Part shown: piece after piece, positions 3,601 to 38,549 of the stretch
Layout: the number at the start of each line of letters is the position of its first letter
Position numbering within the stretch: position 1 is the stretch's first letter
NCBI GenBank assembly: GCA_964016885.1
Contig: OZ024741.1
Span: 297,910,001 to 297,974,000, forward strand
Length of the DNA stretch: 64,000 nt
From: Eledone cirrhosa
Lineage: Eukaryota
Direction of reading: 5' to 3'
Program-made: the position numbers and the translations under genes
Notes under the pieces: model-generated
Told to the model about the DNA's origin: nothing
The model's input: the letters and a program-made list of their open reading frames with translations, nothing else
The model's database searches: none

Positions 3601-4202
3601 ATTGACTGTTGTAAAGCTTTACCAGAAAATGTGGTGTGGTTGAGAACAATTAAATCGTTAATACTGTAAATTGTTGGTATAGTGTTCTTGTTTGTTGCCT
3701 AAGCATATAGATAATTATGGGGTGTTGCAGTGGCTGTGTGGTGATACTGCATTAGTATTAGGACATTGTTAGGCACTCCAACGCTATTAGCTGTCAGTCC
3801 AAGCAGCCGATGGAAACAGGCGAAGGTGACGTCACTCGTCAAACATCGTTTATTTCCGTATTACTACCACGCGTAAGTGGAGTTTTCATGCGTTTTTTGG
3901 AGAGAGAGAGTGAAAAGGGAGGAGAGAGAAGGAAGACTTAAAAGGGCCAAATTAGAAAACAAATAGAAAACAAGTCATGGTTATAAAGCATATCGATGTA
4001 AGTGGAGTTACTTAAATGAAAATATAGGTGGCCCTTAAAAGGGCCAAATTAGAAAACAAGTCATGGTTATCAAATAAATTTGATTTATTCATTTATATTT
4101 TCATTATTCACCAACCTTATTCAAAAGCATGTTTAGAAACATTTATTTCACCAACCTTATTCAGATGAATGGAATCAGATGACGGATATGTTCTAATAAC
4201 TT

Positions 4203-5040
4203 TTAGAAAATTTCTCCTTTAAATTCATACCGCCACATGAATTCAATGAGGTGGGTTTGAAGCAAATTTCTGGCTGTCCCGTTTTCCCTTTTATTCCTAT
4301 TTTTTACGTGTTTCCACAAGCATTCTATGTGATTCGTTGTGGCAAATGTTACTGGATCAACAAAATTGATCGAATGGTTCACCGTCAAATGTTGATAGCC
4401 TAGCTGATCGATCGTATTATAGGAACGCCATAGATCAGATATTATGGTTGTCCCTGGCAATATACGATCCTGTATAAAGGTTAAAAATGTCTCCGCTGTC
4501 CTGTCTTCTACTGCTACTAAAATACATCTTCTGGTACTTCTTTCCAAATAACCCAAAACCCACTGTGTTTTCACAGAATGGCCACGATGGTATTTCCTTC
4601 TCACGAATGCGCTTTCATCAATCTCGACAATTCGGTTTGGCCGGCCAAGCTTAATATTTTGTGCCACATAGTACTCTGCACATACATCACGGCAAACATG
4701 TCGCCAATCTGCTACGGCCACATTCGCGATACGACATTCCTCTGAAATCTTCTTTTGCCCAAAAATATAATATATCAACTATTTGTTCACACTTCAAATT
4801 GCTATTTTCTAAAAATGTGCTTTTTCTAATAGAAACCTATTTTCTACATGGTCTTTTACATGACCAGATAATCCCATCTGACACATTTTGTTTCGTTACT
4901 TCCAACATACGTTGACCACATGAAGGGCAGACCTTTTGTGTATTCAGAAGTCCTTGAATTTTCAACCAATTGACGGTATCTGCTGTAGTAGCGGTAGCGA
5001 TGGAAAGATCGCGGTGGTTAATTCCCTTAACACTTGGATA
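4203..5040 (-). pseudogene. Merlin/ISXO2-like DDE transposase, disrupted
   Basis: ORF 4203-4778 has VEIDES..RRKYHRG..QWVLG, TIISDLWRSY, H.TVNHS.NFVDP..TN.IE..W, EFMWR. The manually translated upstream frame gives a Zn-ribbon WL..QGLL..CPSCG..M..DG..W.C..PCRK*VSIRK.TF with one stop and a frameshift near 4745. Confidence 0.9.
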
Positions 5041-5365
5041 TATTATAGAACTCGTTTTTCAACTTGCAGATGCGTGTATTATCACAAAGTGAAGATTAAA
5101 GTTTATTTATTTACACGTGGTGTTGGTGGTGATTGTTGCTGATTAGTGGGGGTTGTCGCTTGTCTCCATGGGTACTGTATCCATGCTTTTGAATAAGGTT
5201 GGTGAAAATAATTTGTTTTCTAAACATTTCTTCATAAATATATAGCGTTGGTGAAAAAAGTCTGATAACCATAATTTGGCCCTTTTAAGGGCCACCTATA
5301 TTTTCATTTAAGTTAACTCCACTGTTGGTGAAAATGACTTGTTTTTTATATTGATAACCATAACT

Positions 5366-5510
5366 ATGAAAATATGTGACGTCATTCGTCAACCTTCCCC
5401 TACTTTCACTTCTGACAGCTAATACCATGAACTGTAAAAATACAGTTCATGGTATTAGCTGTCAGAAATGAAAGTAGGGAAGGTTGACGAATGACGTCAC
5501 ATATTTTCAT
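5366..5510. repeat. Near-perfect palindrome (~70 bp arms, 4-nt AAAA loop) made of Merlin TIR-like sequence
   Basis: ATGAAAATATGTGACGTCATTCGTCAACC..CTGACAGCTAATACCATGAACTGTA-AAAA-TACAGTTCATGGTATTAGCTGTCAG..GACGAATGACGTCACATATTTTCAT. Confidence 0.95.
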
Positions 5511-5519
5511 GTGTGTGTG

Positions 5520-6507
5520 TGCAAATTTCAATAATATTAAGACACCCTAATGGGGGTTAAACCCCTATAGAGAAAAGTTTGGCCAATAAATGGAACAAGA
5601 TTTTACGAACTCCTCCTATGGTTTTAGAGATAGACCCCCATATCCATATATATTCTGAAACTACATTGCCCAGGGTACTTGTATAAGTATATTTCATTTT
5701 AATCAAAGGGTTCATCGGGGGCACAGAACCGCCGCTGAAACTTTACCTTCGATTTATATGAAATTTAAACCATTGGTAAATGACAAGATATGATGCCTAT
5801 TCACAAAATTTCAGCAAATTTCAATAAAATTAAAATACCCTAATGGTGATTAAACACCCTATTAGGGTTCACCGGTGGCACAAACCCCTGCTGAAAATGT
5901 TTTCCCTTCGATTTATATGCAATTTAAACCATAGGTAAATGACAAGATATGATGCCTATTCACATTTCAGCAAATTTCAATAAAATTACAATACCCTAAT
6001 GGGGGTTAAACCCCCTATTAGGGTTCACCAGGGGGCACAAAATCCCTGCTGAAAATGTTTTCTGTTCGATTTATATGCAATTTAAACCATAGATAAATGA
6101 AGAGATATGATGCCTATTCACACAATTTCAATACTATAAGACACCTTAATGGTGGTTAAACCCCCTATTAGGGTCCCTCGGGGGTACAAACCCCCCACTG
6201 AAAACTTTTCCCTTTCGATTTATATGAAACTTAAATCATAGGTAAATGATAAGATATGATGCCTATTCACAAACGTTTTCAATTGATATTTTGAAAAAAA
6301 TTATTTACAAGAAACAAAATAAGAATAAGATTTAATAATGCAATTTTGATTTGATATATTACAAAAAATGATGTTTTCCAATTTTTCATGCATTATATTT
6401 TACATTGAATTTTTCTCCATAAATTATATCACTGATTTAAAATCATTCATCATTTTCTTATAAAAAAAAATGTGTGAAACGCAGCAAGGCGCTGGTAATT
6501 CGGCTAG
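5520..6507 (+). mobile_element. Non-autonomous Helitron-like element with ~155-bp internal tandem repeats (5' end missing)
   Basis: TGATGCCTATTCACA recurs at ~5791, 5950, 6108 and 6258. The element ends in a GC-rich segment plus CTAG|T (GCAGCAAGGCGCTGGTAATTCGGCTAGT). Confidence 0.6.
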
Positions 6508-6539
<32 letters not shown>

Positions 6540-6571
6540 AGTGTGTGTATATAGATATGTGTGTGTGTGTG

Positions 6572-7570
6572 TGCTCATTATGTAGGAGAGGTGTAGGTAG
6601 AAACTCCATCCTCTGCCCCATATGCAAACTATGGGTACACAAGAGATGTAGTGGGATCTCAGGAAGTTTAGTTAAGAATGTAGGCTTTACATGTAGCAGT
6701 TGCACCAGGACAGTAAGCAGCAAACAATCACTGAAAACAAGTGACATTCAAAGTCTGGGAGGACTTGGTAAAAACAATACCGAATTAGCAGCAGAGGGGG
6801 GGGGGGGGGGTTCTGAAAGAACGGGATGGAAGAAGTTGAGGGAGCTACTGCCACAGCTGGATACAGAAGGCTTTTCGCTCAGAATAAAAAGTAGACTGTA
6901 TGATGTGTGCATGGTAGTGAGAACGGCAATGTTGCATGGTAGTGAGAGCTGGGAGCTGTGTGTAGAAGACTTGCGTAGATTAGAAAGGAATGAAGCTTGT
7001 ATGCTCCGATGGATGTGTAATAGTAATATACGCGAACAGCAAAGCATAAACAAACTGAAAGAGAAACTAGGCATAAGAGGAATCAAATGTGTGCAGGAGA
7101 GGAGATTATGTTGGTATGGACATGTGATTTGTATGAAGGATGACAGCTACATAAAGTCCCAGAAAGACTTGAGATGAAGTGATAAAAGCCGACCTTGCCC
7201 AATTACACCCCTGAAAGGCAATGACACAGGACCAAGATCTCTGGCGTTATGAGGTAATACAGAAACCCCAACTTCCCACGAGCCCCAGGCCAAGGCTGAA
7301 ACATACATACAGTATGCACCACTCCATCCCACCCGCCAATATATCTTTCATGAGAACAGGCCGAAACACTGTAAAGTGGTCGTGATGGTGACACGGTAAA
7401 AAAACACCCAGTCCACACTGTAAAGTAGTCGTGGAGGAATCACAACAAAAAACACCCAGTACTCATTGTAAATGAGCTTGGCATTAGGAAGGGCATCCAG
7501 CTGTAGAAACCAAGCCAAAATCAGTTCTTTATGAGCAAGACATGGTCACCTGACCTAACATTGCCAACAA
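6572..7570 (+). mobile_element. 5'-truncated RTE LINE (family A) with 3'UTR
   Basis: CSLCRRGVGRNSILCPICKLWVHKRCSG..MLHGSE..MLRWMC..WYGHV, homologous to the C-terminus of ORF 49695-52922. Confidence 0.9.
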
Positions 7571-7576
7571 TAGAAG

Positions 7577-7771
7577 GCACATGGCTCAGTGGTTAGAGCA
7601 TTGGGCTTGCAATTGAAAGGTTGCAAGTTTAATTCTCGGACCGGGTGATGTGTTGTTTCCTTGAGCAAGACACTTTATTTCACATTGCTCCAGTTTACTC
7701 AGCTGTAGAAATGAGATGATAGGACTGGGGTCCCTATCATTCCACTGCAAAGTGGTCGTGGAGGTGCCACG

Positions 7772-7806
<35 letters not shown>

Positions 7807-7960
7807 ACCCAGCACTCACTGTAAATGAGGTTGGTGTTAGGAAGGGCATCCAGCCAGAATCAGTTCCCGTATGAGCAAGACAAGGTCAGCCGACTGGACA
7901 CTGCCCACAACAGGACAACCCATGCTAGCGTAGAAGAACTGACATAACATGATGATGATG
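7577..7960 (+). mobile_element. tRNA/CORE SINE, tail type A
   Basis: GCACATGGCTCAGTGGTTAGAGC head, CORE-like block, RTE-A 3'UTR, ending in (GAT)n. Confidence 0.85.
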
Positions 7961-7994
7961 AAATATAACAGAGTTTTATAGCTTGCTTGAAGCA

Positions 7995-8365
7995 TTGATG
8001 AATAGGAAACACAAATTTAAATTTTGAAAACCAAGTTGAGGGCCTTTGAACCCCAGGCTATTGCAATAGCTGCTCCTGATTTTAGATGTGGAAGACGGAA
8101 CCTTTGGTACCACACAGTGACGTCCTGTTCGAGAATTGGTCCAGCTCTCAATGCGAAAGTTTGGTCTTAGTCCCCCCAGGATTTTCCATATGTATATCAT
8201 TGCATATCTCTCCCGTCTTCATTCCGAGGAGTAGAGTTTCAGTTCTTTTAGACTCTCCCAGTAGTTTATCTCCATCGTGGCAACCTTCTTGGTGTAGCTT
8301 CGTTGGATTGCTTCAAGCTCCATGGTTAGTTTGATACAATGGGGGTGACCACAGCTGGGAGCATT
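7995..8365 (-). mobile_element. LINE (CR1/Jockey group) ORF2 C-terminal fragment
   Basis: Minus strand reads ..YWESLKELKLYSSE*RRERYAMIYIWKILGGL.PN.., a typical LINE C-terminal motif. Confidence 0.65.
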
Positions 8366-8366
8366 C

Positions 8367-8708
8367 ATCATTTCATTTTACGTCCACTTTTTCCCTGCTT
8401 GCAAGGGTGGGACGGGAACTGATTCTGGCTTGATTTCTACAGCTGGATGCCCTTCCTAACGCCAACTTCATTTGCTGGGTGCTTTTATCCTATGGCACCT
8501 CCACATCACAGTGTGGGCTGGGTGCTTTTTTTGCCGTGGCACCTCCACAACCACTTTGCAGTGGAATGATAGGGACCCCAGTTATCTCATTTCTACAGCT
8601 GAGTAAACTGGAGCAATGTGAAATAAAGTGTCTTGCTCAAGGAAACAACACATCACCCGGTGTGAGAATTGAACTCACAACCTTTCGATTGCAAGGCCAA
8701 TGCTCTCA
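8367..8708 (-). mobile_element. tRNA/CORE SINE, tail type B
   Basis: Same head and body as the SINE at 62-483, but its end CCCGTCCCACCCTTGCAAGCAGGGAAAA..GGACGTAAAATG matches the RTE-B end at 63506-63550. Confidence 0.85.
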
Positions 8709-8758
8709 ATATGTATACATATATATACTCACACATATATAAACTAATATACACACAC

Positions 8759-8824
<66 letters not shown>

Positions 8825-8827
<3 letters not shown>

Positions 8828-9415
8828 ATAATAATACATATGAAGACTAAAATCCAAAGAGGGCTCGATAGGGATAAATATATATCAATTATATAAGAAC
8901 CGTAGAGCAAATATTTATTAAAATAACAGATTAAAGTTTAAGCAAAGAATCGGCTGCTTTCACCCGTAATGGGATCTTCTGAAACTAAAAAAAAAAAAAA
9001 AATCAATCTGTAAATGCAGAAGTAAATCTTTCGAAAAACGTTGCAACCGAAGGAAGACAGGAAGACGATGCTTTGGTTCGTGGAGACGTAGTTTTAGGTA
9101 TTTCTTCATGCTTGCTACGGGTATGTTCTTTGTAGAAATATTGAGATGTTTCTGCATGATGAATATAAGTCAATGGAGTACTCAGTTAAAGGAGCCAAAT
9201 AGTAATAATAATAAATTTGAAGACTAACATCCAAAGAGGGCTCGATAAGGATAAATATATATCAAATATATAAGAACCGTAGAGTAAATATTTATTAAAA
9301 TAACAGATTAAAATTTAAGCAAAGAATCGGCTGCTTTCACCCTTAATGGGATCTTCTGAAATTAAAAGAAAAAAAAATAAAATCAATCTGTGAACACAGA
9401 AGTAAATATTTCAAA
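8825..9415. repeat. ~205-bp direct duplication
   Basis: TGAAGACTAA.ATCCAAAGAGGGCTCGATA..AATCAATCTGT.AA..CAGAAGTAAAT occurs at 8825-9030 and 9201-9415. Confidence 0.9.
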
Positions 9416-9419
9416 ATTG

Positions 9420-9676
9420 TTTCCTTCATTTTTGCATGTGCTATCAACTTCCAATATGCTCGTAGTGGATTATGCTTTTAGCATATTAACAAAAAATATG
9501 ACTTCCGCTGCAATAAAAAAATGACTAGCTTTGTAAATGGTATTTCCACCCACATCCTCCCTCTTTTTTCTGCAAAGCTAGTCATTTTCATCAGGTTTCC
9601 ATGTCATAACCATTGATAATATGTGCATAAAATAGTAATTTGCGAGCCCCATTTATGTCAAATTGGGTGGTAAGCA

Positions 9677-9716
<40 letters not shown>

Positions 9717-12700
9717 CAAATGAAAATTTGTCACACCAAGATCAATAGCTTGGTTTGATGTAGTATGGTGTACCTTGGTATGGTGTGGTTTGGTTTGGTT
9801 TGGTGAAGTTATGAAATGGAAACCAATTGTAAACGATAGATTCCCATGTCATATTCATTGATAATGTGTGGGAAATTAGTTATTTGCAAGCACCTTTGAT
9901 GTTAGTTTGAGGTGGTAACCACACAAAAAAAAAAAATAAAAAAAAAAATAAAAAAAAAAGCAGCTAGCAAATTTGTCACATTGATGTTCATACCATGGTG
10001 TGATGTAAATGATAGGAGTAGGTGTTTTGTAATAAATTTACCATATAGTGAAGTATGGTTATGGTGTGGATTCGGGTAGATTAATGTGCTGTGGTGTGCT
10101 TTGTTATAAGTGAGGATTTAAATTTCCACTTTGATTTATGTTAGAAAAAAATTTTTACGGCATTTTTGCATGTGCTATCAACTTCCAAGATGCTCACAGT
10201 GGATTATGCTTTTAGCATATTAACAAAAAATATGACTTCCGCTGCAATAAAAAATGACTAGCTTTGTAAATGTTATTTCCAACCACATCCCTCTTTTTTC
10301 TGCAAAGCTAGTCATTTTCATCAGGTTTCCATGTCATAACCATTGATAATATGTGCATAAAATAGTAATTTGAGAGCCCCATTTATGTCAAATTGGGTGG
10401 TAAGCACAAAAAAAAAAACAAAAAAAAAAAAAATTGCCAGATGAAAATTTGTCACACCAAAATCAATAGCTTGGTGTGATGTAGTATGGTATGATTTGGT
10501 GAAGTTTCTACAGAGATAGTAATTTTCGCCAGGTTTCCATGTCATAATTACTGATAAGTGGAAAAAAAATAGTCAATTGGGAGCACCTTTAATGTCAGAT
10601 TGGGTGGTAAGCACACACACACACTTAAAAAAAAAAAAAACGAAACGGGAAGAAAATATTTCACACCAAGATCAATAGCTTGGTGTGATGTAGTATGGTG
10701 TAACTTGGTATGGTGTGGTTTGGTTTGGTTAAGTTATGAAATGGAAACCAATTGTAAACGATAGATTCCCATGTCATATTCATTGATAATGTGTGGGAAA
10801 TTAGTTATTTGCAAGCACCTTTGATGTTAGTTTGAAGTGGTAACCACTAAAAAAAAAAAAAAAAAAAAATAAAGCAGGTAGCAAATTTCTCACATTGATG
10901 TTCATACCATGGTGTGATGTAAATGATAGGAGTAGGTGTTTTGTAATAAATTTACCATATAGTGAAGTATGGTTATGGTGTGGATTCGGGTAGATTAATG
11001 TGGTGTTGTGTGCTTTGTTATAAGTGAGGATTTAAATTTCCACTTTGATTTATGTTAGAAAACAAATTTTTCCTTCAGTTTTGAATGTGCTATCAACTTC
11101 CAAGATGCTCGCAGTGGACTATGCTTTTAGCATATTAACAAAAGATATGACTTTCGCTGCAATAAAAAAATGACTAGCTTTGTAAATGGTATTTCCATCC
11201 ACATCCTCCCTCTTTTTTCTACAAAGCTAGTCATTTTCATCAGCTTTCCATGTCATAACCATTGATAATATGTGCATAAAATAGTAATTTGCAAGCACCT
11301 TTTATGTCAAATTGGGTGGTAAGCACAAAAAAAAAAATTGCCAGATGAAAATTTGTCACACCAAAATCAATAGCTTGGTGTGATGTAGTATGGTGTAGTT
11401 TGGTGAAGTTTCTACAAAGATAGTAATTTTCGCCAGGTATCCATGTCATAATTACTGATAAGTAGAAAAAAAATAGTCAATTGGGAGCACCTTTAATGTC
11501 AGATTGGGTGGTAAGCACACACACACAAAAAAAAAAAAGGAAACGGGAAGAAAATATTTCACACCAAGATCAATAGCTTGGTGTGATGTAGTATGGTGTA
11601 ACTTGGTATGGTGTGGTTTGGTTTGGTAAAGTTATGAAATGGAAACCAATTGTAAACGATAGAATCCCATGTCATATTCATTGATAATGTGTGGGAAATT
11701 AGTTATTTGCAAGCACCTTTGATGTTAGTTTGAGGTGGTAACCACTAAAACAAAAAAAAAAAGCAGGTAGCAAATTTCTCACATTGATCTCCATACCATG
11801 GTGTGATGTAAATGTTAGGTGTTCTGTAATAAATTTACCATATAGTGAACTATGGTTATGGTGAATTTATGGTGTGGATTGGGGTAGATTAATGTGGTGT
11901 TGTGTGCTTTGTTATAAGTGAGGATTTAAATTTCCACTTTGATTTATGTTAGAAAACAAATTTTTCCTTCAATTTTTAATGTGCTATCAACTTCCAAGAT
12001 GCTCGCAGTGGATTATGCTTTTAGCATATTAACAAAAGATATGACTTCCGCTGCAATAAAAAAATGACTAGCTTTGTAAATGGTATTTCCACCCACATCC
12101 TCCCTCTTTTTTCTGCAAAGCTAGTCATTTTCATCAGCTTTCCATGTCATAACCATTGATAATATGTGCATAAAATAGTAATTTGCGAGCCCCATTTATG
12201 TCAAATTGGGTGATAAGCACAAAAAAAAAAAAAAAATTGCCAGATGAAAATTTGTCACACCAAAATCAATAGCTTGGTGCGATGGTGTCGTTTGGTGAAG
12301 TTTCTACAAAGATAGTAATTTTCGACAGGTTTCCCTGTCATAATTAATGATAAGTGAAAAAAAAATAGTCAATTGGGAGCACCTTTAATGTCAGATTGGA
12401 TGGTAAGCACACAGACAAAAAAAAAAAAAGGAAAGAAAATGTTTCACACCAAGATCAATAGCTTGGTGCAATGTAGTATGGTGCAACTTGGTATGGTGTG
12501 GTGAAGTTATGAAATGGAAACCAATTGTAAACGATAGATTCCCATGTCATATTCATTGATAATGTGTGGGAAATTAGTTATTTGCAAGCACCTTTAATGT
12601 TAGTTTGAGGTGGTAACCACTAAAAAAAAAAAAAAAGCAAGTAGCAAATTTGTCACGTTGAGTTCATACCATGGTGTGATTTAAATGATAGGAGTAGGTG

Positions 12701-13102
12701 TTTTGTAATAAATTTACCATATAGTGAACTATGGTTATGGTGAATTTATGGTGTGGATTGGGGTAGATTAATGTGTTGTGGTGTGCTTTGTTATAAGTGA
12801 GGATTTAAATTTCCACTTTGATTTATGTTAGAAAACAAATTTTTCCTTCATTTTTGCATGTGTTATCAACTTCCAAGATGCTCGCAGTGGATTATGCTTT
12901 TAGCATATTAACAAAAGATATCACCTTCCGCTGCAATAAAAAAATGACTAGCTTTGTAAATGGTATTTCCACCCACATCCTCCCTCTTTTTTCTGCAAAG
13001 CTAGTCATTTTCATCAGCTTTCCATGTCATAACCATTGATAATATGTGCATAAAATAGTAATTTGCGAGCCCCATTTATGTCAAATTGGGTGATAAGCAC
13101 AG

Positions 13103-13137
<35 letters not shown>

Positions 13138-14054
13138 CCAGATGAAAATTTGTCACATCAAAATCAATAGCTTGGTGCGATGGTGTGGTTTGGTGAAGTT
13201 TCTACAAAGATAGTAATTTTCGACAGGTTTCCCTGTCATAATCTATATATATAAAACTGGTTGTCTGTCTGTCTATCGATTTTTGGCACACATCTCCTCT
13301 TAGAATCTCTCACGGAATTGCACCGAAATTGCTACACTTGTATATTGAGCCCAAGCGAAGACATCGGAAAAAAAAAATTTCAAATTGACCCACCCTATGT
13401 GACGAAATCGAATATAATGTATCGATTTTTGAGCGTAAGTTATTTCCCTTTGTTCTGTTTACATTGAGCGTCTTACGTAAAAAATTACGCTGGTTTTCTC
13501 AGCGTTCGAGCCAGCAAAATATTGACCTGCAAAATTCATCAGTTCGAACACTAAGCTTCCGTTTTGCTTCATTTCCATTTAAAAGCATTTTAAGACAATA
13601 TTTTTACTTGAAAACAAGTCTATTTAAAGACTACGTAAAACAAGCAAATATTTCAGGCGTGCAGAGAGGTGATATAGGCGTGCAGACAGACATAACTGAT
13701 AATTTGGTTACGCTAATGTTTTTCTCTGCGTTGCAGTGTTTACATTTTCGATCTTTGTTAATAAATAACCAGTGCAGTTTTTATCCCCAGCATCCTCTTT
13801 TGTTATAACATTCGGGTTATCGTTATGTTTTCTTAACTTCATAAGGCATATTGTTGGTTGAGGGAATATTAATCAAAAACACCACATGCAAGTCTGCACA
13901 GTAGACACTACAGTTTTTAAGCCAAAAAAGAAACTTAACATTGTAACTTTAACACAGCTACTGAGCGACCCCGAGCAACGCCGGGCTTTACTGCTAGTAT
14001 GTGATAAAATAGTAATTTGCAAGCACCTTTAATGTCAAATTGTGTGGTAAGCAC

Positions 14055-14086
<32 letters not shown>

Positions 14087-17000
14087 CCAGATGAAAATTT
14101 GTCACACCAAAATCAATAGCTTGGTGTGATGTAGTATGGTGTGGTTTGGTGAAGTTTCTACAAAGATAGTAATTTTCGCCAGGTATCCATGTCATAATTA
14201 CTGATAAGTGGAAAAAAAATAGTCAATTGGGAGCACCTTTAATGTCAGATTGGGTGGTAAGCACACACACACACTAAAAAAAAAAAAAGGATACAGGAAG
14301 AAAATATTTCACACCAAGATCAATAGCTTGGTGTGATGTAGTATGGTGTAACTTGGTATGGTGTGGTTTGGTTTGGTTTGGTTAAGTTATGAAATGGAAA
14401 CCAATTGTAAACGATAGATTCCCATGTCATATTCATTGATAATGTGTGGGAAATTAGTTATTTGCAAGCACCTTTGATGTTAGTTTGAGGTGGTAACCAC
14501 TAAAAAAAAAAAAAAAAGCAAGGAGCAAATTTGTCACATTGATGTTCATACCATGGTGTGATTTAAATGATAGGAGTAGGTGTTTTGTAATAAATTTACC
14601 ATATAGTGAACTATGGTTATGGTGAATTTATGGTGTGGATTGGGGTAGATTAATGTGCTGTGGTGTGCTTTGTTATAAGTGAGGATTTAAATTTCCACTT
14701 TGATTTATGTTAGAAAACAAATTTTTCCTTCATTTTTGCATGTGTTATCAACTACCAAGATGCTCGCAGTGGATTATGCTTTTAGCATATTAACAAAAGA
14801 TATCACTTCCGCTGCAATAAAAAATGACTAGCTTTGTAAATGGTATTTCCACCCACATCCTCCCTCTTTTTTCTGCAAAGCTAGTCATTTTCATCAGCTT
14901 TCCATGTCATAACCATTGATAATATGTGCATAAAATAGTAATTTGCGAGCCCCATTTATGTCAAATTGGGTGATAAGCACAAAAAAAAAAAAAAAAAAAA
15001 AAAAAATTGCCAGATGAAAATTTGTCACACCAAAATCAATAGCTTGGTGCGATGGTGTCGTTTGGTGAAGTTTCTACAAAGATAGTAATTTTCGACAGGT
15101 TTCCCTGTCATAATTAATGATAAGTGAAAAAAAATAGTCAATTGGGAGCACCTTTAATGTCAGATTGGATGGTAAGCACACAGACAAAAAAAAAAAAAGG
15201 AAAAGGAAAGAAAATGTTTCACACCAAGATCAATAGCTTGGTGCAATGTAGTATGGTGTAACTTGGTATGGTGTGGTTTGGTTTGGTGAAGTTATGAAAT
15301 GGAAACCAATTGTAAACGATAGATTCCCATGTCATATTCATTGATAATGTGTGGGAAATTAGTTATTTGCAAGCACCTTTGATGTTAGTTTGAGGTGGTA
15401 ACCACTAAAAAAAAAAAAAAGCAAGGAGCAAATTTGTCACATTGATGTTCATACCATGGTGTGATTTAAATGATAGGAGTAGGTGTTTTGTAATAAATTT
15501 ACCATATAGTGAAGTATGGTTATGGTGTGGATTGGGGTAGATTAATGTGGTGCTGTGTGCTTTGTTATAAGTGAGGATTTAAATTTCCACTTTGATTTAT
15601 GTCAGAAAACAAATTTTTCCTTCATTTTTTAATGTGCTATCAACTTCCAAGATGCTCGCAGTGGATTATGCTTTTAGCATATTAACAAAAGATATGACTT
15701 CCGCCGCAATAAAAAAATGACTAGCTTTGTAAATGGTATTTCCACCCACATCCTCCCTCTTTTTTCTACAAAGCTAGTCATTTTCATCAGCTTTCCATGT
15801 CATAACCATTGATAATATGTGCATAAAATAGTAATTTGCAAGCACCTTTTATGTCAAATTGGGTGGTAAGCACAAAAAAAAAAAAAAAAAAAAAAAAAAA
15901 TTGCCAGATGAAAATTTGTCACACCAAAATCAATACCTTGGTGTGATGTAGTATGGTGTGGTTTGGTGAAGTTTCTACAAAGATAGTAATTTTCGCCAGG
16001 TTTCCATGTCAGAATTACTGATAAGTGGAAAAAAAATAGTCAATTGGGAGCACCTTTAATCTCAGATTGGGTGGTAAGCACACACACACACAAAAAAAAA
16101 AAAAAAAGGAAACGGGAAGTCATTATTTCACACCAAGATCAATAGCTTGGTGTGATGTAGTATGGTGTAACTTGGTATGGTGTGGTTTGGTAAAGTTATG
16201 AAATGGAAACCAATTGTAAACGATAGATTCCCATGTCATATTCATTGATAATGTGTGGGGAAATCAGTCATTTGCAAGCACCTTTGATGTTAGTTTGAGG
16301 TGGTAACCACAAAAAAAAAAAAAAAAAAAAAAAAAAAGCAGGTAGCAAGTTTGTCACATTGATCTCCATACCATGGTGTGATGTAAATGTTAGGTGTTCT
16401 GTAATAAATTTACCATATAGTGAACTATGGTTATGGTGAATTTATGGTGTGGATTGGGGTAGATTAATGTGCTGTTGTGTGCTTTGTTATAAGTGAGGAT
16501 TTAAATTTCCACTTTGATTTATGTTAGAAAACAAATTTTTCCTTCATTTTTGCATGTGTTATCAACTTCCAAGATGCTCGCAGTGGATTATGCTTTTAGC
16601 ATATTAACAAAAGATATCACTTCCGCTGCAATAAAAAAATGACTAGCTTTGTAAATGGTATTTCCACCCACATCCTCCCTCTTTTTTCTGCAAAGCTAGT
16701 CATTTTCATCAGCTTTCCATGTCATAACCATTGATAATATGTGCATAAAATAGTAATTTGCGAGCACCATTTATGTCAAATTGGGTGATAAGCACAAAAA
16801 AAAAAATAAAAAAAATTGCCAGATGAAAATTTGTCACACCAAAATCAATAGCTTGGTGCGATGGTGTCGTTTGGTGAAGTTTCTACAAAGATAGTAATTT
16901 TCGACAGGTTTCCCTGTCATAATTAATGATAAGTGAAAAAAAAATAGTCAATTGGGAGCACCTTTAATGTCAGATTGGATGGTAAGCACACAGACAAAAA

Positions 17001-17683: not shown

Positions 17684-17714
<31 letters not shown>

Positions 17715-18579: not shown

Positions 18580-18618
<39 letters not shown>

Positions 18619-21530: not shown

Positions 21531-21565
<35 letters not shown>

Positions 21566-21700: not shown

Positions 21701-21879
21701 TTACCAAGGTATGGTATAATCTGGTTTGGTGTAGTGTAGGGTGGTGTGGTGTGTTATTGTGTTGCATTGTATAGTGTGATTCTCTTTAAATTAAAATCAT
21801 TAAAATGTAATGCCTATCTTCTATATCTTAAAGAGTGACCTTAAATGTGATTGCAAATGACTTTTTTCTCTGGATTAAT

Positions 21880-26360: not shown

Positions 26361-26809
26361 CTTCTCCTCTGCCATCTAAATGCCAAAAACAAAGAATGTA
26401 AAACATATATGTTGCCTATCTCTCAGACTTTACAAAGTGCTGAGGAGATAAAGTTAATTTAAAGAGCAGTGTGCTCATGCACTGTGATCCTATAATGTAG
26501 GTTATAAGCTATTTCATAACTAAAAATCAATGTCAAACATCAACAAAAGTATATACAAATATCTTTGAATGTTTAAGTTAAACCTAAATAGATCATATCT
26601 ACAGGTCATTAGGTTAAGACTGAACTAAGATCATATCTATAAATCATTAGGTTTAGACTGAACTGAGATCATACTTTCTTCTTCTTTTCATCATCTTCGT
26701 TTCCCATGTCTTCTTTGTCTTTGTTGTCATTTTCATTTTAGTCGTCTGCTTCGTCGTCTTTTTCTTCTTTTCCATCTAAATATAAAAAAAATTGTAAACA
26801 AATATATAG

Positions 26810-27833
26810 ATTTCTATTTATTGCCACTAGGGTGCAAAAGAAGGGGACAAAGACAAGGGAGGAGTTTACATAAAAAGGCGAGTAAAGAAAACAAATAAAT
26901 ATAAAATTAACAATAAAGTCCTCAATAGGGAAGGGGCGTTTGGGGGGTCGCACACACCCCCGAAAAAAGTGTGCAACCCCTTCTCCTCAGGAGCACAGAG
27001 AGAGGGTGCTCCCTCGTTCCTTCCTTTTTTCTACCTACAGGCTGATATAGAGAGAAGGCCAATTCACACGGGCCATTCTCGCTACTTTCACCCACCTTTC
27101 ATAAAAACAACTGGGGTTGAGCATCTCTCTCCATCCTGATCCTTCTTCCGAAATGATATCGGAAGAAACAGATCAGTTGTTGGCCAGAGAGAAAGGTGCC
27201 TGAGCTGAGTCCTTTCAGACGCGTCCACCGTACAACCTCTTTCACCATGGCTATTACGCACAGAAACACCGCCTCTCCTTCATTTTTGAAGGGGGGAGGC
27301 GGCTTAAACGTTACAATGGCCTCGGTTGTCAACCGGATCGGTCCCACCCTTGATAGCAGTCATTCGAAATAGCCCCACAGATCGGCTACGCCCGAGTCGT
27401 GTACCAATACGTGTGCAACGGTTTCCTCGTCGCGCACGCATCTGGGACAGAACTTTTTGGCGGGATCCCTACCCGAGCGCACGTGTCTGTAGAGCTTTTC
27501 TCGAACGGGTAGAGCCCCTCGGTAGCCAGGGACTTCTGGAAGTTGTCCATAGGTCCCGGGCTGAATGTCCTACCGAACAGGCTGGCCAGTTCGTCTTCCT
27601 CCATGTCTTGGGCTTCTCCGAGGGCGTCGTCGCACCTGCTGCGTACCAGCCCTCTATAGAATGTCGCGGTGGAGTCTCCAATGATAACCGGGTCCACCTG
27701 CCAGAGGGCTGTGAGCGCCTGGGCACACCCAGTGTGCCAGGCGCCCAGTTTTCTCGGTCTTTGCTTGACCCAAGATTGCAGCTCGGTGAGTGAGACGAGT
27801 CTGGGAAATATTCGTCTCACAAACGGGGCCCAC
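26810..27833 (-). mobile_element. 5'-truncated L1/Tx1-clade LINE with 12-bp TSD
   Basis: GC-rich. Minus strand encodes AWHTGCAQALTAL..TATFYRGLV.. and, after a frameshift, LPVREKL..CPRCVRDEETVAH (zf-RVT/CCHC-like). AATAAA near the 3' end. ACAAATATATAG flanks it at 26798-26809 and 27834-27845. Confidence 0.8.
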
Positions 27834-28641
27834 ACAAATATATAGCTGATCTCTCAGACTTTCACGAAACACCGAGGAGATACAGTTAATATAACGAGTG
27901 GGAACTCATATATATATATATATATATATGGTACAGCATGGTGTTATGTGGTCTGGTGTGGTACAACATGGTGTGATGTGGTGTGGTATGATATGGTGGG
28001 GCAGGGAGGGGGGAGACAACGTTAGATTAATGTTAACAATACACATGTAACATCCACATGTGATGAGAAGGGGGAAACAGTGTTTAACTAATTTTAACAT
28101 TACATGTAACATCCATCTACAGGTGATTAAGTTAAGACTGAGGTGTAATCATGAAAAGGTCAATTTAAAACTACACATATTCTGCTTAAAATGATGGTCA
28201 ATGAAGTGTTTACTTACTCAGATCCTTTGAAATAACTTTCTTTCTCTTACTGTAACTGGACATACCTATGAAATAGAAAACAGTCGAATAGACAGTGGTG
28301 TGGTGTAGTGTAGTGGAGTGTGGTTTAGTATAGTGGACAGTGGTGTGGTGTAGTGGAGTGTGGTTTAGTGTAGTGGACAGTGGTGTGGTGGAGTGTGTTT
28401 CAATGTAGGGTGGGAGATATTGTGTAGTGGAGTGTGGTGGGATGTAGTGTGGTAGCATGTGGTGTGATGGCATGTGATGTGATGTGATGAAATGTGGCGT
28501 GGCGTGGTGAAATGTAATGTGATGTGATGAAATGTGGCGTGGCGTGGTGAAATGAGGCGTGGCGTGGTGAAATGAGGCGAGACGAGACGTGGTGTGATGT
28601 GATATGGTGAGATATGGTGTGGTGTGGTGTGATGTGATGTG

Positions 28642-29597: not shown

Positions 29598-30003
29598 GGG
29601 TGTTGTGTGGTGTGGAGTAGTGTGGTGTGTTTTTATGTGGTGTGATGTAGTGAGGTGTGTTTTATGTGGTGTGATGTAGTGAGATGAGGTGTGGTGTGTT
29701 GTGTTGTGATGTGGTGTGGTGTAGTGTTGTATGTTTTTATGCAGTGAAGTGTGGTGTGATGTGGTGCAGTGCACTGTGATGTGGTGTGGTGCAGTGCGGT
29801 GCAGTGAGGTTCTTCATCTTTATCTTTCTCTTCTTCATCTTTGTATTCATCTTCTTTATTTTGTCTTCCATCTAAAAAAAAAAAAATTTATATATAAAAC
29901 ATATCTGTAGCCAATCTCTCAGACTTTTACAAAGCTCCAGGGAGATAAATTTAATATAAGTGGTGTGTTTCTGAACAGAGATACTACAAAATAGCTTAAA
30001 AGC

Positions 30004-30323: not shown

Positions 30324-32833
30324 TGTCCGCACCCCAATCCGGACTGCCTGGCGCTATAAAAGACAGATTCTATGAGACACTGATGCTCACTACCTCCCAA
30401 ATAACCGACAGTGACTATATAATTATTGCTGGCGACCTAAATGGTCACGTTGGACAACATTGTGACAGCTATGACGGAATCCATGGAGGCTATGGGTTTG
30501 ATACTAGAAATGAGGAAGGCCCCAGAATCCTGGAATTCTGTGACGCAAATAACCTATCTGTAACACTAACTTCAAAAAGCGAGACAATCACTTGATCACC
30601 TACAGATCAGGGGAACATACCAGCCAGGTAGATTATATCCTTACCAGAAGACGTGACAGAGTGTCTGTTGTAAACACTAAATCCCTCCCCCATGAAGAAT
30701 GCACCTCTCATGTACTCGACAACAGAAGAGGACTATCCTCAGGAGAAAAATATGGAAGCTAAAGGACCCCACAGCCAGAAATAAATTTCAAAGCATATTA
30801 CTTGATGCTTTCGACAGTAAGGAAGAGCAATTAGAGTCGTACAATATAGAGGAACAGTGGGAATTCCTGAAAGCAAACCTGCTGATGGCGACAGATGAAG
30901 TCTGCGGCTGGAGCAGACCTATAGGCAGGAGGAGAGTAACGTGGTGGTGGAACAGTAAGGTGGAGGAGACAATTAAGGCCAAAAAGCAGGCTTGGAAAGT
31001 ATGGCGGGATGGGGGAAGTAGAGAAGACTATCAAGTGGCCAGGAGGGAAGCTAGGAGACAAGTGTACTTCGCAAGAAGGGAAGCAGAGGAAAGAAAGTTC
31101 AAGCATGTTCTACAACACGAGGACCAAAAACGTTAAGTCTTCAGGATTGCTAGGCAATGTGTCAAGGAAAACCGTGATATTGTCGTGGAGAAGTGTGTCC
31201 TTAATGATGATAGTGTACTTGCCATCACTGATGCTGATAAGAAGGTAGCTTGGAAGTGTCACTACGAAAGGCTACTAAATGAGGAGAATAAATGGGAGAA
31301 AGACAGTCTCCCCCACATCGATCCAATAGAGGGACCAGCAGTGCTAGTTGAAGGTAGTATAATAAGTAAGGCAATCAAAGATATGAAGACGGGTAAGGCG
31401 GCTGAAATGCTGAAAGCATCTGGAACGGTGGGACACACTATGGTCACCCGGATAGTAAACCAAGTCATACAGAATGGGGTTGTTCCGAAGGACTGGCGTA
31501 GCAGCATCATCATTAACTGCTACAAGGGTAAAGGAGATGCCCTAGATATGGGTAACTATAGAGGCATTAAATTAATGGACCAGGTCATGAAGATCACAGA
31601 AAAAGTAATAGCGCAACTAATCAGAGAGCGAATTGATCTAGATGAAATGCAGTTCGGGTTTGTGTCAGGTAAAAGTACCACAGACACTCTTTTCATTGTA
31701 CGACAACTACAGGAGAAGTACCTAGCTAAAAGTAAACCCCTATACTTAGCTTTTGTCGACTTGGAGAAAGCCTTTGACAGAGTCCCCTGTTCCATTATCT
31801 GGTGGGCTCTTAGAAAACTAGGCGTTGATGAATGGCTTGTGAGAGCTATACAAGCCATGTATAAAGAAACAGTCAGCAAGGTTAGAATTAACAATGAATA
31901 TAGTGAAGAGTTTAGCGTAAAAGTTGGTGTTCATCAGGGCTTCGTTTTTAGCCCCCTACTATTTATTATTGCCCTTCAGGCTATAACAGTGGAGTTCAAG
32001 ACTGGCTGCCCATGGGAACTCCTATATGCAGATGATCTAACGCTCATAGCTGAATCAATGGCTGAACTAGAGAAGAAATTCCAAACATGGAAGCATGGCC
32101 TAGAATCAAAAGGCCTTAAAATTAACCTAAGACTAAAGTTCTAGTTTGTAGGAAGGAAAATAGGGCACCGGTCCCATCCAGGAAATGGCCATGCTCAGTG
32201 TGTAGGAAAGGAGTAGGCAGAAACTCCATTTTATGTCCCAAATGCAAAGTATGGGTGCATAAAAGATGTAGTGGCATCACAGGTAAGCTAACTAAGAATA
32301 TAGATTTTATATGTGGCCGGTGCTCTGGTGCAACAAGTAGCAGCAAGTGCCCACAGAATACTAGCTCATTCCATTGCACAGATGGTTCTATAGAAATAGT
32401 GGACACCTTCCGTTACTTGGGTGACAAAATCAGCAGTGATGGAGGGTGCTCTGAAAGTACAGTAGCTAGAGTCAGAACTGGATGGAAAAAGTTCAGAGAG
32501 CTTATACCACTATTAGCCGCTAAAGGGTTCTCTCTAAAAATGAAAGGCAGGCTGTATGATGCCTGCATACGAACAGCAATGTTACATGGCAGTGAGACCT
32601 GGGCATTGTGTGCAGAGGATATACACAGACTGGAGAGGAACGAAGCTTGCATGCTCCGCTGGATGTGTAATAGTAATATACGTGAACGGCAAAGCATAAA
32701 TGAACTAAGGGAAAAATTAGAAATAAGGGGGATCAGATGCTGTTTACTCGAGAAAAGACTACGTTGGTACGGTCACGTGATGCGCATGAAAGACGACAGC
32801 TGCATAAAAATTTGCAGGGCGATAAAAATAGAC
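30324..32833 (+). mobile_element. RTE LINE family A copy, truncated at both ends, with stops and frameshifts
   Basis: ORFs 30323, 30699, 31185 and 32198 are collinear with, and nearly identical to, the 1075-aa ORF (GDLNGH, FVDLEKAFD, LYADD, PHD-like finger). Confidence 0.95.
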
Positions 32834-32835
32834 GT

Positions 32836-33309
32836 AGTATTAATTATGCAGACACTCAATATTTCAATGTTATTTTCAACTATTATCTCATCAGAATAAT
32901 CTCATTGAGAACTTGTTTGGTTTTTATAGAGAATATTAAGAGGGAGGAGTGAAGTTAGAAGAATAGTTAAGGGAGTGTATAGAAATTGTTGATAGCAGTG
33001 GGTAATTATATTCCCATCTGTTGTTTTGACATTTTTATAGAATACATTATTTGGCTGGTTAGTTTTCTAAATCTATAGAAGGATTAGTGATAGTAAAGAT
33101 ATGCATGGTTGATTTTGTGTTTGCACTTAATTAACATACAGCCTTAAATTTTTCTTTCAAGTGTGTGTATCCATTCGCCCACACATAGATATATGTGTAT
33201 ATATACTTATTTTTTTAAAAAACATACACATTCACACACATACATATATGCACACCTCTACAAATACATACACTCACATACACATACTTACATACATATA
33301 TACATGTAC

Positions 33310-33340
<31 letters not shown>

Positions 33341-33605
33341 CATATGGACCCACATACGCATTCATGTATATACACTTTCATACTCTACTTATCTTCATAT
33401 ACACACATATAGACACACACATATATACATACATACTCCTGTCTATGAGTATATATATATATATATATATATATATTTGGGGAGGGTCATATTTGCGTAA
33501 TATTGCCAGAATTAATAACAGAACACACTCACTGTTTGGTTGGTTTTCGCTTCTCGCTGTCTTTTATATCTGCGATCTAACTTACTCGGTCCTCAATGTT
33601 GCCAT

Positions 33606-33652
<47 letters not shown>

Positions 33653-36114
33653 AATACACATATACATGAATACACATACATTTAATTATCAACATCAAAT
33701 ATATATATATATATATATATATACACTCACTCACTTATTTACTTATTTATATACATTTTCACCTATATACATACATATGGTCGCTTAGACACATTCATTA
33801 TAGCATATTCGCACCTATTCTCACCAGCATATTTATCCATTATTAGTGTGATAATTTAAGGTTATTAATAGTACATATAGATGTTGAGAATTGATTTTTT
33901 TTTTATATTTTTCTAACTAGATTGAGGATTTGTATAGTTGGGAGGATGTCCCTCGTTTATGTAATATTCAGCTTGTAGTGGGAAAAAAGGGTTTTAGTTC
34001 GGTGACGGCAGAATAATGTTCGTTCGATTCTGTTATTAAGCAGTTTCTTCTTGTGTGTGATTATGTAATAAATCTCAAGATTACATAATTTGCAGAAATT
34101 TTGACTCCTGGAAAAGCTTTGGGTTTTAACTAATTCCTCCCATTTTAGGGTAAACTTTTGATCGCTATCCCTGAGTGTCCAAGCTTTTTCTGCTAAAGTT
34201 GTTACATTTCTTTGGCTCTGGTGTTTTATTGAGTAAGAATGCCTATATAATCGAGATTTAAACGATGTTGCCGTTGATCCCACGTAATACCACTCGTTGC
34301 CTCCGGATTCAATGGTACACTTATAGATGATATTTTTTTCCAGGCAGTTATTGCCGAGGGGGCAATTGTCTGGATAGGTGCAGTTACAGTTGTGTACGTT
34401 TGTTTTGTAGTTAGGTTTACTCTGTAGTAGTATTGCGGACGAACTTAGGTGTGGTTTATTTATGTTCTGTAGTGTATTGTCTACTGTTTTTTTTGTGCTC
34501 TTTGTACTTAAGTTTTTAGTGTTTTCGTTTAACCTTCTAGTATTGATCTTTTTTATGTGTTCAAGGGTTAACGCTGTAGAGTATGACAGTCTTATAGTGG
34601 TAGGGTTTAGGATTTTGTGGTATTTGTGTGATGTAGGAAAATGTTTCCTAACTATTTTAAAGAAGAGTACTGGTAAATTTGTACTAATGGAACTATTGTA
34701 TTCAGGGTTATACCATAAGTACTCTTTGCATCGCTTTCTATTAGTTTTGTTTGTTGGTTTACTGGTGTGTACACTATGGTAGTAAGTGTGGTTTGGTGTT
34801 GTGTTATTATTTCTACCTATGTGGGATTTATTTTGGGTGTTTTGATTGTTTTCATCTATATATTCTATTTTGTTGAGGTAGCCTGCTTTACTAAGGGCGT
34901 TATCGTAGTACTCGGCGTGTTCCTTAAATACTTGTATGTTAGAAGATAGACCCGAGATTCTAAGGGGAATATTTTTAGGGATAGATTTAATTATAGAGAT
35001 GGGTGGTTAGACCCAACATTTACGTACTTGAGATTTTCATTCAATTTATGAAACGGTTTAATCAGACCAGAGTTTAAATTGAGTGTGACATCCAGGAAGT
35101 TAACTACTTTAAGGTTGTGTTCATATGTTATAGTTAGTCCTATTTCGAGTAGTAGTTTTCTTATATCATTGCGTAGTTTTTCTAGTTTTTGGTTATCTAG
35201 ATTTTTAACTAGGAGGAGAGCATCATCGTGGTATATTCCACCATGAAGATTACTGAATTTTTCCTGGAGTTTAAAGGCGATAAATAACCCCACAATATCA
35301 GTTATTTCTGCCGAATCGTTAGAGCCCATTGTTATGTCAAAGTTGGAGGGTCTATCTTTACGAACCCAATAACTGTTCTCAAATTTGACTATAGTTTTCC
35401 TAGCTTCTAATATAATCTTAATTTCTTCGTTTGTAAGGTCAGAGTTATCCTTAGCAAACTCAATGGCTCTATTTAGAGTTTCAGGTGATATCGATGAGTA
35501 ATATTAAAAAATCTCGATTATATAGGCATTCTTACTCAATAAAACACCAGAGCCAAAGAAATGTAACAACTTTAGCAGAAAAAGCTTGGACACTCAGGGA
35601 TAGCGATCAAAAGTTTACCCTAAAATGGGAGAAATTAGCTAAAACCCAAAGCTTTTCCAAAGAGCCAAAATTTCTGCAAATTATGTAATCTTGAGATTTA
35701 TTACATAATCACACACAAGAAGAAACTGCTTAATAACAGAATCGAACGAACATTATTCTGCCGTCACCGAACTAAAACCCTTTTTTCCCACTACAAGCTG
35801 AATATTACATAAACGAGGGACATCCTCCCAACTATACAAATCCTCAATCTAGTTAGAAAAATATAAAAAAAAAATCAATTCTCAACATCTATATGTACTA
35901 TTAATAACCTTAAATTATCACACTAATAATGGATAAATATGCTGGTGAGAATAAGTGTGCGAATATGCTATAATGAATGTGTCTAAAAGCGACCATATGT
36001 ATGTATATAGGTGAAAATGTATATAAATAAGTAAATAAGTGAGTGAGTGTATATATATATATATATATATATTTGGTGTTGATAATTAAATGTATGTGTA
36101 TTCATGTATATGTG

Positions 36115-36156
<42 letters not shown>

Positions 36157-36258
36157 GACAGGAGTATGTATGTATATATGTGTGTGTCTATATGTGTGTA
36201 TATGAAGATAAGTAGAGTATGAAAGTGTATATACATGAATGCGTATGTGGGTACATAT

Positions 36259-36309
<51 letters not shown>

Positions 36310-36850
36310 TGTATATATGTATGTAAGTATGAGCATGTAAGTATGTATATGTGAGTGTATGTATTTGTAGAGGTGTGCATATATGTATGTGTGTGAATGT
36401 GTATGTTTTTTTAAAAAATAAGTATATATACACATATATCTATGTGTGGGCGAACGGATACACACACTTGAAAGAAAAATTTAAGTCTGTATGTTAATTA
36501 AGTGCAAACACGAAACCAACCATGCACATCTTTACTATCTCTAATCCTTCTATAGATTTAGAAAAATAACCAACGCCAAATAATGTATTCTATAAAAATG
36601 TCAAAACAACAGATGGGAATATAATAACCCACTGCTATCAAAAATGTCTATACACTCCCTTAACTATTCTTCTAACTTCACTCCTCCCTCTTAATATTCT
36701 ATATAAAAACCAAACAAGTTCTCAATGAGATGAAATGATAGTTGAAAATAACATTGAAATATTGAGTGTCTGCATAATTAATACTTTGTAGATAGCAGCT
36801 GTTTTCAGGTTATATAACCGTTATTGAAACACGTGTCAATAATTCCTTTT
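32836..36850 (-). mobile_element. Penelope-like retroelement (RT + GIY-YIG) with a ~1.3-kb inverted duplication
   Basis: RT MGSNDSAEITDIVG..GGIYHDDAL..VNFLDVTLNL (34991-35329). Endonuclease CNC..NCPLGNNCL..IIYK..YYVGST..FKSRLYRH (33957-34400). 32836-34258 is the reverse complement of 35511-36785. Contains stops. Confidence 0.9.
36776..36844 (+). ncRNA. Degenerate minimal hammerhead ribozyme in the Penelope pLTR
   Basis: GAAAC-ACGT-GTC (palindromic loop plus GUC cleavage triplet) at 36826-36837. The upstream TTGTAGA is a decayed CTGANGA. Confidence 0.55.
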
Positions 36851-37025
36851 ACTGAACTGTATCCATTTAAATCCTATTTTCTCCGGATTACTTTTGAAAC
36901 TACAACTGGAACCGTTGAGCAAACCCTACGTGAGCTGTCCATCTACTGTGTGTAATATTCGTATTACAACACTCCGGAAAATACTATATATATACATATA
37001 TATAGATTCATACATACATACACAC

Positions 37026-37069
<44 letters not shown>

Positions 37070-37346
37070 ACTTGACGAGGAGCATTCTAGTTCAATAAAC
37101 TGATTGAATAATACAAACGATGTTTTAATATACAGATTCATTATTTGTGTATATATAATATATACAAAGCATATAAATAAATTTACAGTAGAATAACATA
37201 GCAAATATGTTTTAAATATATACATAAATAACATTACCAATGTTTAAATAACATTATAAATTGCTCGCGATTCTTTCAGAAAAATATATTCCTTTAATGT
37301 TGCAATATTAAAGAAAATATACGTATATATATATATATATATATAT

Positions 37347-37393
<47 letters not shown>

Positions 37394-38549
37394 ATATTAA
37401 TAAATGGAAACTATATTTATAAAACCATATTTATTTTATATATATTTTAAGGACCACTGCTTTCATCAGATAAAATAAATATATATACATACATACACAC
37501 ATATATATATGTATGTATGAAACTTAATTATTCGTGTAATGCGACTCCTTTAACGTTTTTAATAATTATTTGATATTACTTACCTTCTTATCTTTTGCTT
37601 TTATTGTTTCTGCGTCGGTTAACATTGCGTTTATTCCCTGGAGAAAAATGGCGCCAAACTTTTCCCTTTGAAAGAATAATGTGATAGTGTTCACGTGATA
37701 TATAGCTGTCAGTCGTGAAAGCAGCCGATGAAAGCGGGCGAAGGTGACGTCATTCGTCATCGTTTATTTCCGTATTACTACCACCAAGTAACTCCACTTA
37801 CGCGTGGTAGTAATACGGAAATAAACGATGTTTTGCTTTCATCGGCTGCTTTCGACTGACAGCTAATAGATTTGTAGTGCCCATTGTTATGTTAAGATTG
37901 TTCTGAGAATGGCTGTAAGTGCTGATAGTTGTGTGACATAAAATATTTAATATTGAAACTAGGTATTAAAGCAAACAATCAAACACTAGCAGGAGTATAT
38001 TTAGTCTCGTATAATATACTGCTGAGTTTTACTAATGAGTTATTTAACATAGTTTGTGGTGTTGCTTGAGTGGCAATGGTGTATTGACATTTGAAACATT
38101 TTGTTGGGGCTCTGCTCAAAACGTTAGACTTTTCTTCTTCTTAGTGAACTAATTTACTACACTTTCTGAAAAATGTATACTTACTGTTATTCAATTCCAA
38201 GATATAATCTGTTTCTGGTTATTGAACGGCAATATTTTTTCTTTTTGTTTACATTCGGTCACAAAGTTATCTCTCTTATATTTATTGTCGTCAACAACAA
38301 AATTATCTCCCTTATATTTGTTGCCATGAACAACAAAACCTATCCAATATAGTTCATCTCCCCACTTCATTGTCACTACTAGTACCACCAGCCCACTGTC
38401 AATATACACCTTAACTCATTACCATAACAATTGCAACTACGCTATCACTGACACTGCCACAATATACCTACTGCTACCACATCGTACTCCATCACAATTT
38501 TTACCAACACCATTCCAACCTCTATATTAACTACTACAACAGAAACAAT

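Follow-up and report, generated by a model that had tools for sequence, protein, structure and literature searches.

Merlin transposases normally reside on elements of a few kilobases. The published criteria for such elements are terminal inverted repeats (TIRs) of 24-462 bp that begin with 5'-GG, target-site duplications (TSDs) of 8-9 bp, and a DDE_Tnp_IS1595 domain with a DDE triad and no N-terminal Zn_Tnp_IS1595 domain (PMC8101967). Large Merlins of about 10-14 kb are already known from the same source, in which the repeat coordinates of zebrafish Merlin-1_DR and Merlin-2_DR extend to 10,335 and 13,661 bp, and 18 Merlin families are counted for O. vulgaris in a passage that gives no lengths (PMC13282606). 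The efficiency of cut-and-paste transposition drops with size, large inserts are disfavored unless selected, and the giant elements treated in the relevant sections of one review use viral or replication genes (PMC6431247). Here we describe a stretch of 64,000 nucleotides from Eledone cirrhosa (assembly GCA_964016885.1, contig OZ024741.1, positions 297,910,001 to 297,974,000, forward strand; hereafter the window, to whose first letter all plain coordinates refer), which harbors a Merlin element of 34,110 bp. Very likely, this element is one insertion of a multi-copy giant family with a typical length of about 26 kb, the members of which carry the same apparently gene-free repeat load on many chromosomes, are flanked by their own 8-bp duplications, and likely moved by cut-and-paste, mediated by a transposase of about 300 amino acids that the family itself encodes. 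Like the zebrafish elements as described in print, the family combines GG termini and TSDs of 8-9 bp with TIRs in the range of 24-462 bp, a DDE_Tnp_IS1595 transposase (broken in the window copy) and internal tandem repeats, but it is about twice as long (median 26 kb, maximum 48 kb), its cargo contains long interspersed nuclear elements (LINEs) and other transposons, and it comprises two subfamilies with different ends and one core.

The window element occupies positions 3772-37881, with GGCAC beginning at 3772, GTGCC finishing at 37881, and CATTGTTA directly outside both ends. An earlier note on this DNA, made from the letters alone, had pointed to inverted GGCAC-starting termini 34.1 kb apart with an exact 8-bp TSD, and to a Merlin transposase pseudogene just inside the left end. 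Both observations hold: the TIRs measure 113 and 92 bp and align with one 22-bp gap only, and the pseudogene (4164-5058, minus strand) matches Pfam DDE_Tnp_IS1595 with E 7e-18. Two readings had been offered for the 34 kb, namely a giant that carries cargo and moved as a whole, or an ordinary Merlin inflated by nested insertions. The former is supported by the recurrence of this cargo inside the same TIRs at many loci, with TSDs that differ from locus to locus, and by an orthologous empty site.

In the genome of 3.0 Gb, the two ends and the interior, used as separate queries (40 candidates scored per search), led to the same loci. Among 33 long loci studied, including the window and one locus seen at its ends only, both outer ends could be placed in 19. 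Of these end pairs, 13 have an exact 8-bp TSD, one has an exact 9-bp TSD, two match at 7/8 positions, and three have no TSD; all TSDs are distinct between loci, and the exact ones are found on contigs C1-C4 and C14. The 16 TSD-supported elements are 7.5-48.2 kb long, with a median of about 26 kb. The 48-kb copy (C3:18.13-18.18M; L101-L105) owes about 26 kb to another tandem repeat, an inflation that took place after or during the spread of this copy. A 30-mer from the cargo has 146 matches in the genome and a 33-mer from the right TIR has 100 (with at most 2 mismatches), the controls giving 0; some of these matches are tandem or segmental repeats, and the first 100 cargo matches collapse to 89 loci. 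A copy number of 100 or more is likely. Merlin loci of other families in this genome have inverted repeats inside 2.5 kb around the transposase in 26 of 28 cases (TSDs unchecked), and a metagenome scan yielded 2 loci in uninformative context.

An assembly artifact is ruled out, as contigs of run X1, which may be the assembly's own sample, run over both junctions, covering 2600-3808 on the left and 37840-39029 on the right, and show 0 differences from the window. In organism C, which is about 90% identical, a contig of run X6 (3,410 nt, depth 16.7) aligns with its positions 1165-2270 to window 2602-3663 and with its positions 2367-2779 to window 37882-38339; 96 letters stand in for the 100 window bases that precede the TSD, and the depth across the right end of the element is zero. 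Two X6 contig records are taken here as one from their matching length and depth, and contig depths are not taken as copy numbers. As this contig aligns to both flanks with a gap of nearly the expected size, the flanks are contiguous in organism C, with one TSD copy and without the element, i.e. this is an orthologous empty site, and a check proposed in the earlier note has thus turned out in favor of insertion. At other loci, the flank pairs of the 16 elements were joined by script, and 6 of them match a contiguous paralogue in sampled genome DNA, including matches of 97% across 263 bp and 95% across 231 bp. The window is not among these six; the matches obtained with its left flank are all short and do not reach the junction, and a paralogous empty site was not found for this locus.

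The cargo is collinear across the compared copies, in the order transposase, 145-bp hairpin, repeat of 156-bp units, LINE fragments, array of ~900-bp units (0-12 anchors), hexamer block, 1,025-bp insert, LINE and right end. In the window copy, the parts are:

3764-3771: left TSD, CATTGTTA
3772-3884, plus strand: left TIR, 113 bp, beginning with GG, delimited by alignment to the right end
3985-4175: inner imperfect inverted repeat, with its mirror at about 5180-5325
4164-5058, minus strand: Merlin DDE transposase pseudogene
5366-5510: near-perfect 145-bp hairpin in which the subterminal TIR motif is present and the terminal bases are missing
5510-6536: separate dispersed repeat of 156-bp units, common cargo (1,320 exact genome matches of a 29-mer)
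6560-8760: LINE fragment (PHD finger) and other dispersed-repeat pieces, common cargo
9324-21664: tandem array of ~900-bp units, with 12 anchor motifs here and 0-11 across 20 other copies
13253-13991: 739-bp insert confined to the window copy, the ends of which we take to be Helitron-like
21857-25806: degenerate hexamer low-complexity block that resembles N/A/D/T-rich coding sequence
26810-27834, minus strand: 1,025-bp insert of a dispersed repeat, accompanied by an 11-bp duplication and likely representing the 3' part of a non-long-terminal-repeat retrotransposon
30325-32834, plus strand: broken LINE (RVT_1, PHD), presumably RTE-like, at the same place in most copies
32835-36980: 4.1-kb insert with long inverted arms, confined to the window copy and presumably Penelope-like
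37703-37784, plus strand: forward-facing TIR remnant without terminal bases, 86% identical to 3788-3870
37790-37881, minus strand: right TIR, 92 bp, ending with CC
37882-37889: right TSD, CATTGTTA, present as a single copy in the organism C contig

Solely 13253-13991 and 32835-36980 are covered by at most 2 of 20 other copies. As these window-specific inserts total about 4.9 kb, and as the ~900-bp array has probably grown somewhat locally, the unit that jumped into this locus likely measured about 25-29 kb and not the full 34 kb. A nested pile-up, the second of the two readings mentioned above, thus fails as an overall account and applies just to these inserts and probably to some growth of the array. 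The microsatellite junctions at ~5511 and ~37520, which had been regarded as a sign of pile-up, both recur in other copies and do not indicate a local one. Between the arms of the 4.1-kb insert (32835-36785), there are frames that we take to be reverse transcriptase-like and endonuclease-like, but the insert gave zero Pfam matches. The cargo LINEs have Pfam matches to RVT_1, endonuclease and PHD, and at 30325 the window copy is without ~2 kb that are present in other copies. Three decayed copies of one motif block (26378-26440; 26779 and 27850; 29873-29950) suggest an old tandem triplication within the cargo. The 1,025-bp insert shows one and the same left junction in 14 copies; 6 others are cleanly without it and have a single 11-bp site, and 3 more lack this region. 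Five of the six insert-less copies form one clade (support 0.92), and the sixth is outside the sample of that tree. The shared junction and the clean absences indicate that this passenger entered a master copy and then spread along with it.

The mobility of this family appears to depend on one IS1595-type transposase of about 300 amino acids. In the window copy, the start codon is gone, and the frame contains one frameshift and internal stops, but open frames of 300-302 amino acids exist in 3 of 19 copies. The family transposase matches DDE_Tnp_IS1595 with a Pfam E of 7e-19, the D152/D213/E250 triad is present in the one copy that was checked (copy N), and the match to the N-terminal Zn_Tnp_IS1595 profile is sub-threshold (13.7 bits, cut-off 25.4). 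The best-named relatives are Octopus proteins with 63-85% identity. To judge from the TSDs and empty sites, this transposase presumably acts on the ends described here. Hairpins at 4006-4050 (minus strand) and 5273-5318 (plus strand), one in each arm of the inner repeat, exceed the Rfam gathering score for Histone3, the stem-loop of histone 3' untranslated regions. The hairpin at 4006-4050 lies in sense orientation about 115 nt behind the transposase frame; AATAAA sits just upstream of the histone-type hairpin, and no purine-rich downstream element is obvious there. As such stem-loops were found in 0 of 18 other Merlin sources (Rfam) and 0 of 29 loci of other families (pattern search), a general Merlin feature is unsupported, and the hairpin may be a subterminal palindrome that matches by coincidence.

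Ends and cargo have diverged to a similar degree (about 2-4%): the mean pairwise distance between copies is 2.7% in the transposase and 4.4% in the right end, and in six cargo modules it lies at 2.3-4.4%. With a calibration in which 0.09 corresponds to 25 million years (PMC13282606), this suggests that the family spread about 4-6 million years ago, which is a rough figure, as the calibration comes from another species. Outside the element, an open LINE frame of 1,076 amino acids (49695-52925, minus strand; endonuclease, reverse transcriptase, PHD finger) belongs to the family of the cargo LINE; it differs by 6.1% on average from the cargo LINEs and by 2.6% from one displaced copy. Two further pieces outside the element (41052-42377 and 56265-57051, both minus strand) are broken transposase pieces that have a Spin-doc zinc finger by Pfam and that we take to be hAT/Buster-like. 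A cluster of more family ends and transposase arms at C2:298033506-298099346, beyond the window but no more than about 125 kb from its end, possibly results from local hopping.

How could an element of this size have come about? The transposase would have used the outermost ends of two neighboring Merlin pieces and skipped the inner ends, thereby capturing the repeat-rich host DNA that lay between them. Retroelements that landed in master copies would then have multiplied as passengers, and intact sister copies may have provided transposase in trans during an amplification burst a few million years ago. The window copy would have been about 25-29 kb long when it moved, and about 4.9 kb would have been added afterward. 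Such a capture would have occurred at least twice, as the elements of a second subfamily run past an inner right end that is intact and lies 325-390 bp from their left end. This second subfamily came to light among the 61 of the 89 cargo loci at which a right end had not been listed, the search pattern having missed its end variant: of five such loci sampled, four hold complete giants (22.4-48.2 kb) that have exact TSDs and no transposase, and at the fifth no ends were seen within 30 kb. The central core is that of the window's subfamily, and the right end is different. The left end is a mini-element of 325-390 bp that itself has an intact right terminus, save in one of the four giants, in which this terminus is deleted; beyond it, the same flank and 5-10 kb of extra DNA follow. 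This inner right end with its flank occurs at 8 loci. The bypassed inner ends and the TSDs at the outer ends point to a movement by the outer ends past the inner one, i.e. to the signature of composite or end-bypass transposition.

What alternatives exist for this outer-end mechanism? It is possible, though clearly less probable, that the giant is mobile but that its cargo was captured only once, by repair or template switching at the 145-bp hairpin of a foldback Merlin of ~3 kb, in the course of which most of the right arm was replaced (FoSTeST or gap-filling models). Foldbacks of this family do exist: the mirror forms measure 2.8-3.3 kb, have two transposase arms and are flanked by TSDs (two exact, one at 7/8), and there are also mini forms of 0.5-0.7 kb (L011/L012, L016, L018, L164, L165). 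Moreover, the mirror of the giant ends 73 bp beyond the hairpin center, and several copies break or fold back at this hairpin, which is a breakage hotspot; in one copy (L030), a 23-bp piece of it is present in tandem copies. As inner ends survive in the window's subfamily only as damaged remnants (the hairpin and 37703-37784), repair-mediated capture within a foldback form keeps some plausibility there. However, the intact inner end of the second subfamily with its fixed flank, as well as the TIR remnant at 37703, agree better with the use of outer ends, and animal Pack-TIR captures are reported to have a median length of only 224 bp (PMC8277862).

It is improbable that the cargo is retained because a useful product is encoded in it, be it a low-complexity protein or an RNA, by analogy with Pack-TIRs or Starships. 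This idea is inspired by the block at 21.9-25.8 kb, in which there are N/A/D/T-rich frames of up to about 200 amino acids and in which the length of many indels is divisible by 3 (14 of 18 indels in one segment and 36 of 70 in a second). Yet the block evolves neutrally among copies: the synonymous fraction is 0.29, as compared to 0.27-0.28 expected under neutrality, frameshifts occur, and the block is deleted in several TSD-bearing copies. A homologue search with it gave just 3 weak matches, and Rfam detected nothing in the element besides the two Histone3-like hairpins. No cargo gene was found by open reading frame listing, Pfam analysis of selected frames, one homologue search and Rfam, with short exons not having been searched against the host proteome. 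Neither were viral, PolB, capsid or tyrosine-recombinase genes found in frames of at least 200 amino acids of 14 copies (by eye) or in the Pfam-scanned frames of the window. The cargo consists of LINEs, other repeats and arrays, and it is apparently gene-free.

It is highly improbable that the copies arose by segmental duplication of a single inflated element instead of by transposition. At five right ends, the terminus is mutated and the flank is a common one (L040 at C3:375.3M, L043 at C4:11.5M, L045 at C4:11.7M, L047 at C3:58.4M and L048 at C7:71.7M), and in three of them the likeness continues past the TIR for 37-41 kb (about 98%); where this common stretch stops, a search for a closing Merlin end gave none. 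These copies represent either a segmental duplication seeded by giants or a larger mobile unit. In addition, the flanks of L037 and L038 are identical along 1.5 kb. Such duplication covers only a subset, whereas in 16 elements the homology stops at the GG/CC termini; for the TSD-bearing copies, segmental duplication is ruled out by their locus-specific TSDs and by the empty sites. Least probable of all is an ordinary ~2-kb Merlin that was inflated in place and never moved as a 34-kb unit: the cargo is made of other repeats, and the two inserts of 4.9 kb are window-specific, but the same cargo lies in the same order between TIRs at other loci with different TSDs and is as young as the ends, which rules out a local pile-up.

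Several observations nevertheless weigh against a family of giants that moved as units by their outer ends. Three end pairs have no TSD, the exact TSD ATATATAT of copy O is weak, and 14 other long loci have no testable pair due to truncation, rearrangement, a damaged end or a limited sequence span. Many copies are truncated or recombined. A listed right end lies within 40 kb at only 28 of the 89 cargo loci (C1-C4), a count obtained with the pattern that misses the end variant of the second subfamily. Trees of the individual modules have a star-like shape and agree with one another only weakly (Mantel P 0.02-0.54; P < 0.05 in 2 of 7 tests), and tree congruence was dropped as a line of evidence, as it carries too little signal. 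Recent activity was not seen, the closest transposase pair being 1.2% apart. The donor locus of the cargo was not found, so that end-bypass is not separated from repair-mediated capture. On balance, this formerly mobile giant Merlin family is real, and its cargo was likely captured and re-captured by the use of outer ends.

The use of outer ends has precedents. In maize Ac/Ds macrotransposition, the outer ends of neighboring elements move the DNA between them, and both this process and the composite Ising transposable element (TE) of Drosophila are rare single-locus events, whereas the composite described here is a dispersed family of likely 100 or more copies. The Ising TE, which lies between foldback elements, resembles the present case in that the outer ends of two adjacent elements move the intervening DNA (PMC6431247). 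According to the sections of the same review that deal with element sizes, Pack-MULEs remain under 7 kb and an algal CACTA family reaches 16-20 kb, and Merlin is not mentioned there. Like multicopy Pack-TIRs and Pack-MULEs as characterized in these sources, the giants are TIR elements with foreign DNA that were re-transposed, with TSDs that differ between copies and orthologous sites that are empty, but their load amounts to 20 kb or more, and neither a gene fragment nor a parent locus of a captured host gene fragment was found. With Teratorn, Polintons/Mavericks (PMC6431247) and Starships, they share a mobile unit of 20 kb or more, and with Starships, on which TEs are described to hitchhike (PMC13004909), also the passenger TEs; unlike those systems as covered in these sources, they have no viral, polymerase, capsid, recombinase or cargo genes in the frames tested. 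A giant Merlin is not described in the literature searched, although an unpublished Repbase or Dfam entry is possible.

An ordinary small DDE transposase thus appears to have multiplied a ~26-kb load without a detected gene about 100 times or more, and the family may add up to roughly 2-3 Mb of the genome (a rough estimate). For LINE copies and satellite arrays, this would be a direct route to spread without machinery of their own. Repeat annotators would split such units into unrelated fragments and thereby miscount LINE activity. It is tempting, if speculative, to regard a minimal Merlin transposase of ~300 amino acids as a general large-cargo shuttle of the animal germline, which would repeatedly pair distant ends to capture or re-capture 20-50 kb, spread LINEs and satellites, and seed duplications of 80 kb or more, and the expression of which the histone-type stem-loop might tie to S phase. 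The transposase of this family is in any case a natural candidate for a large-cargo transposase, the size tolerance of which is testable.

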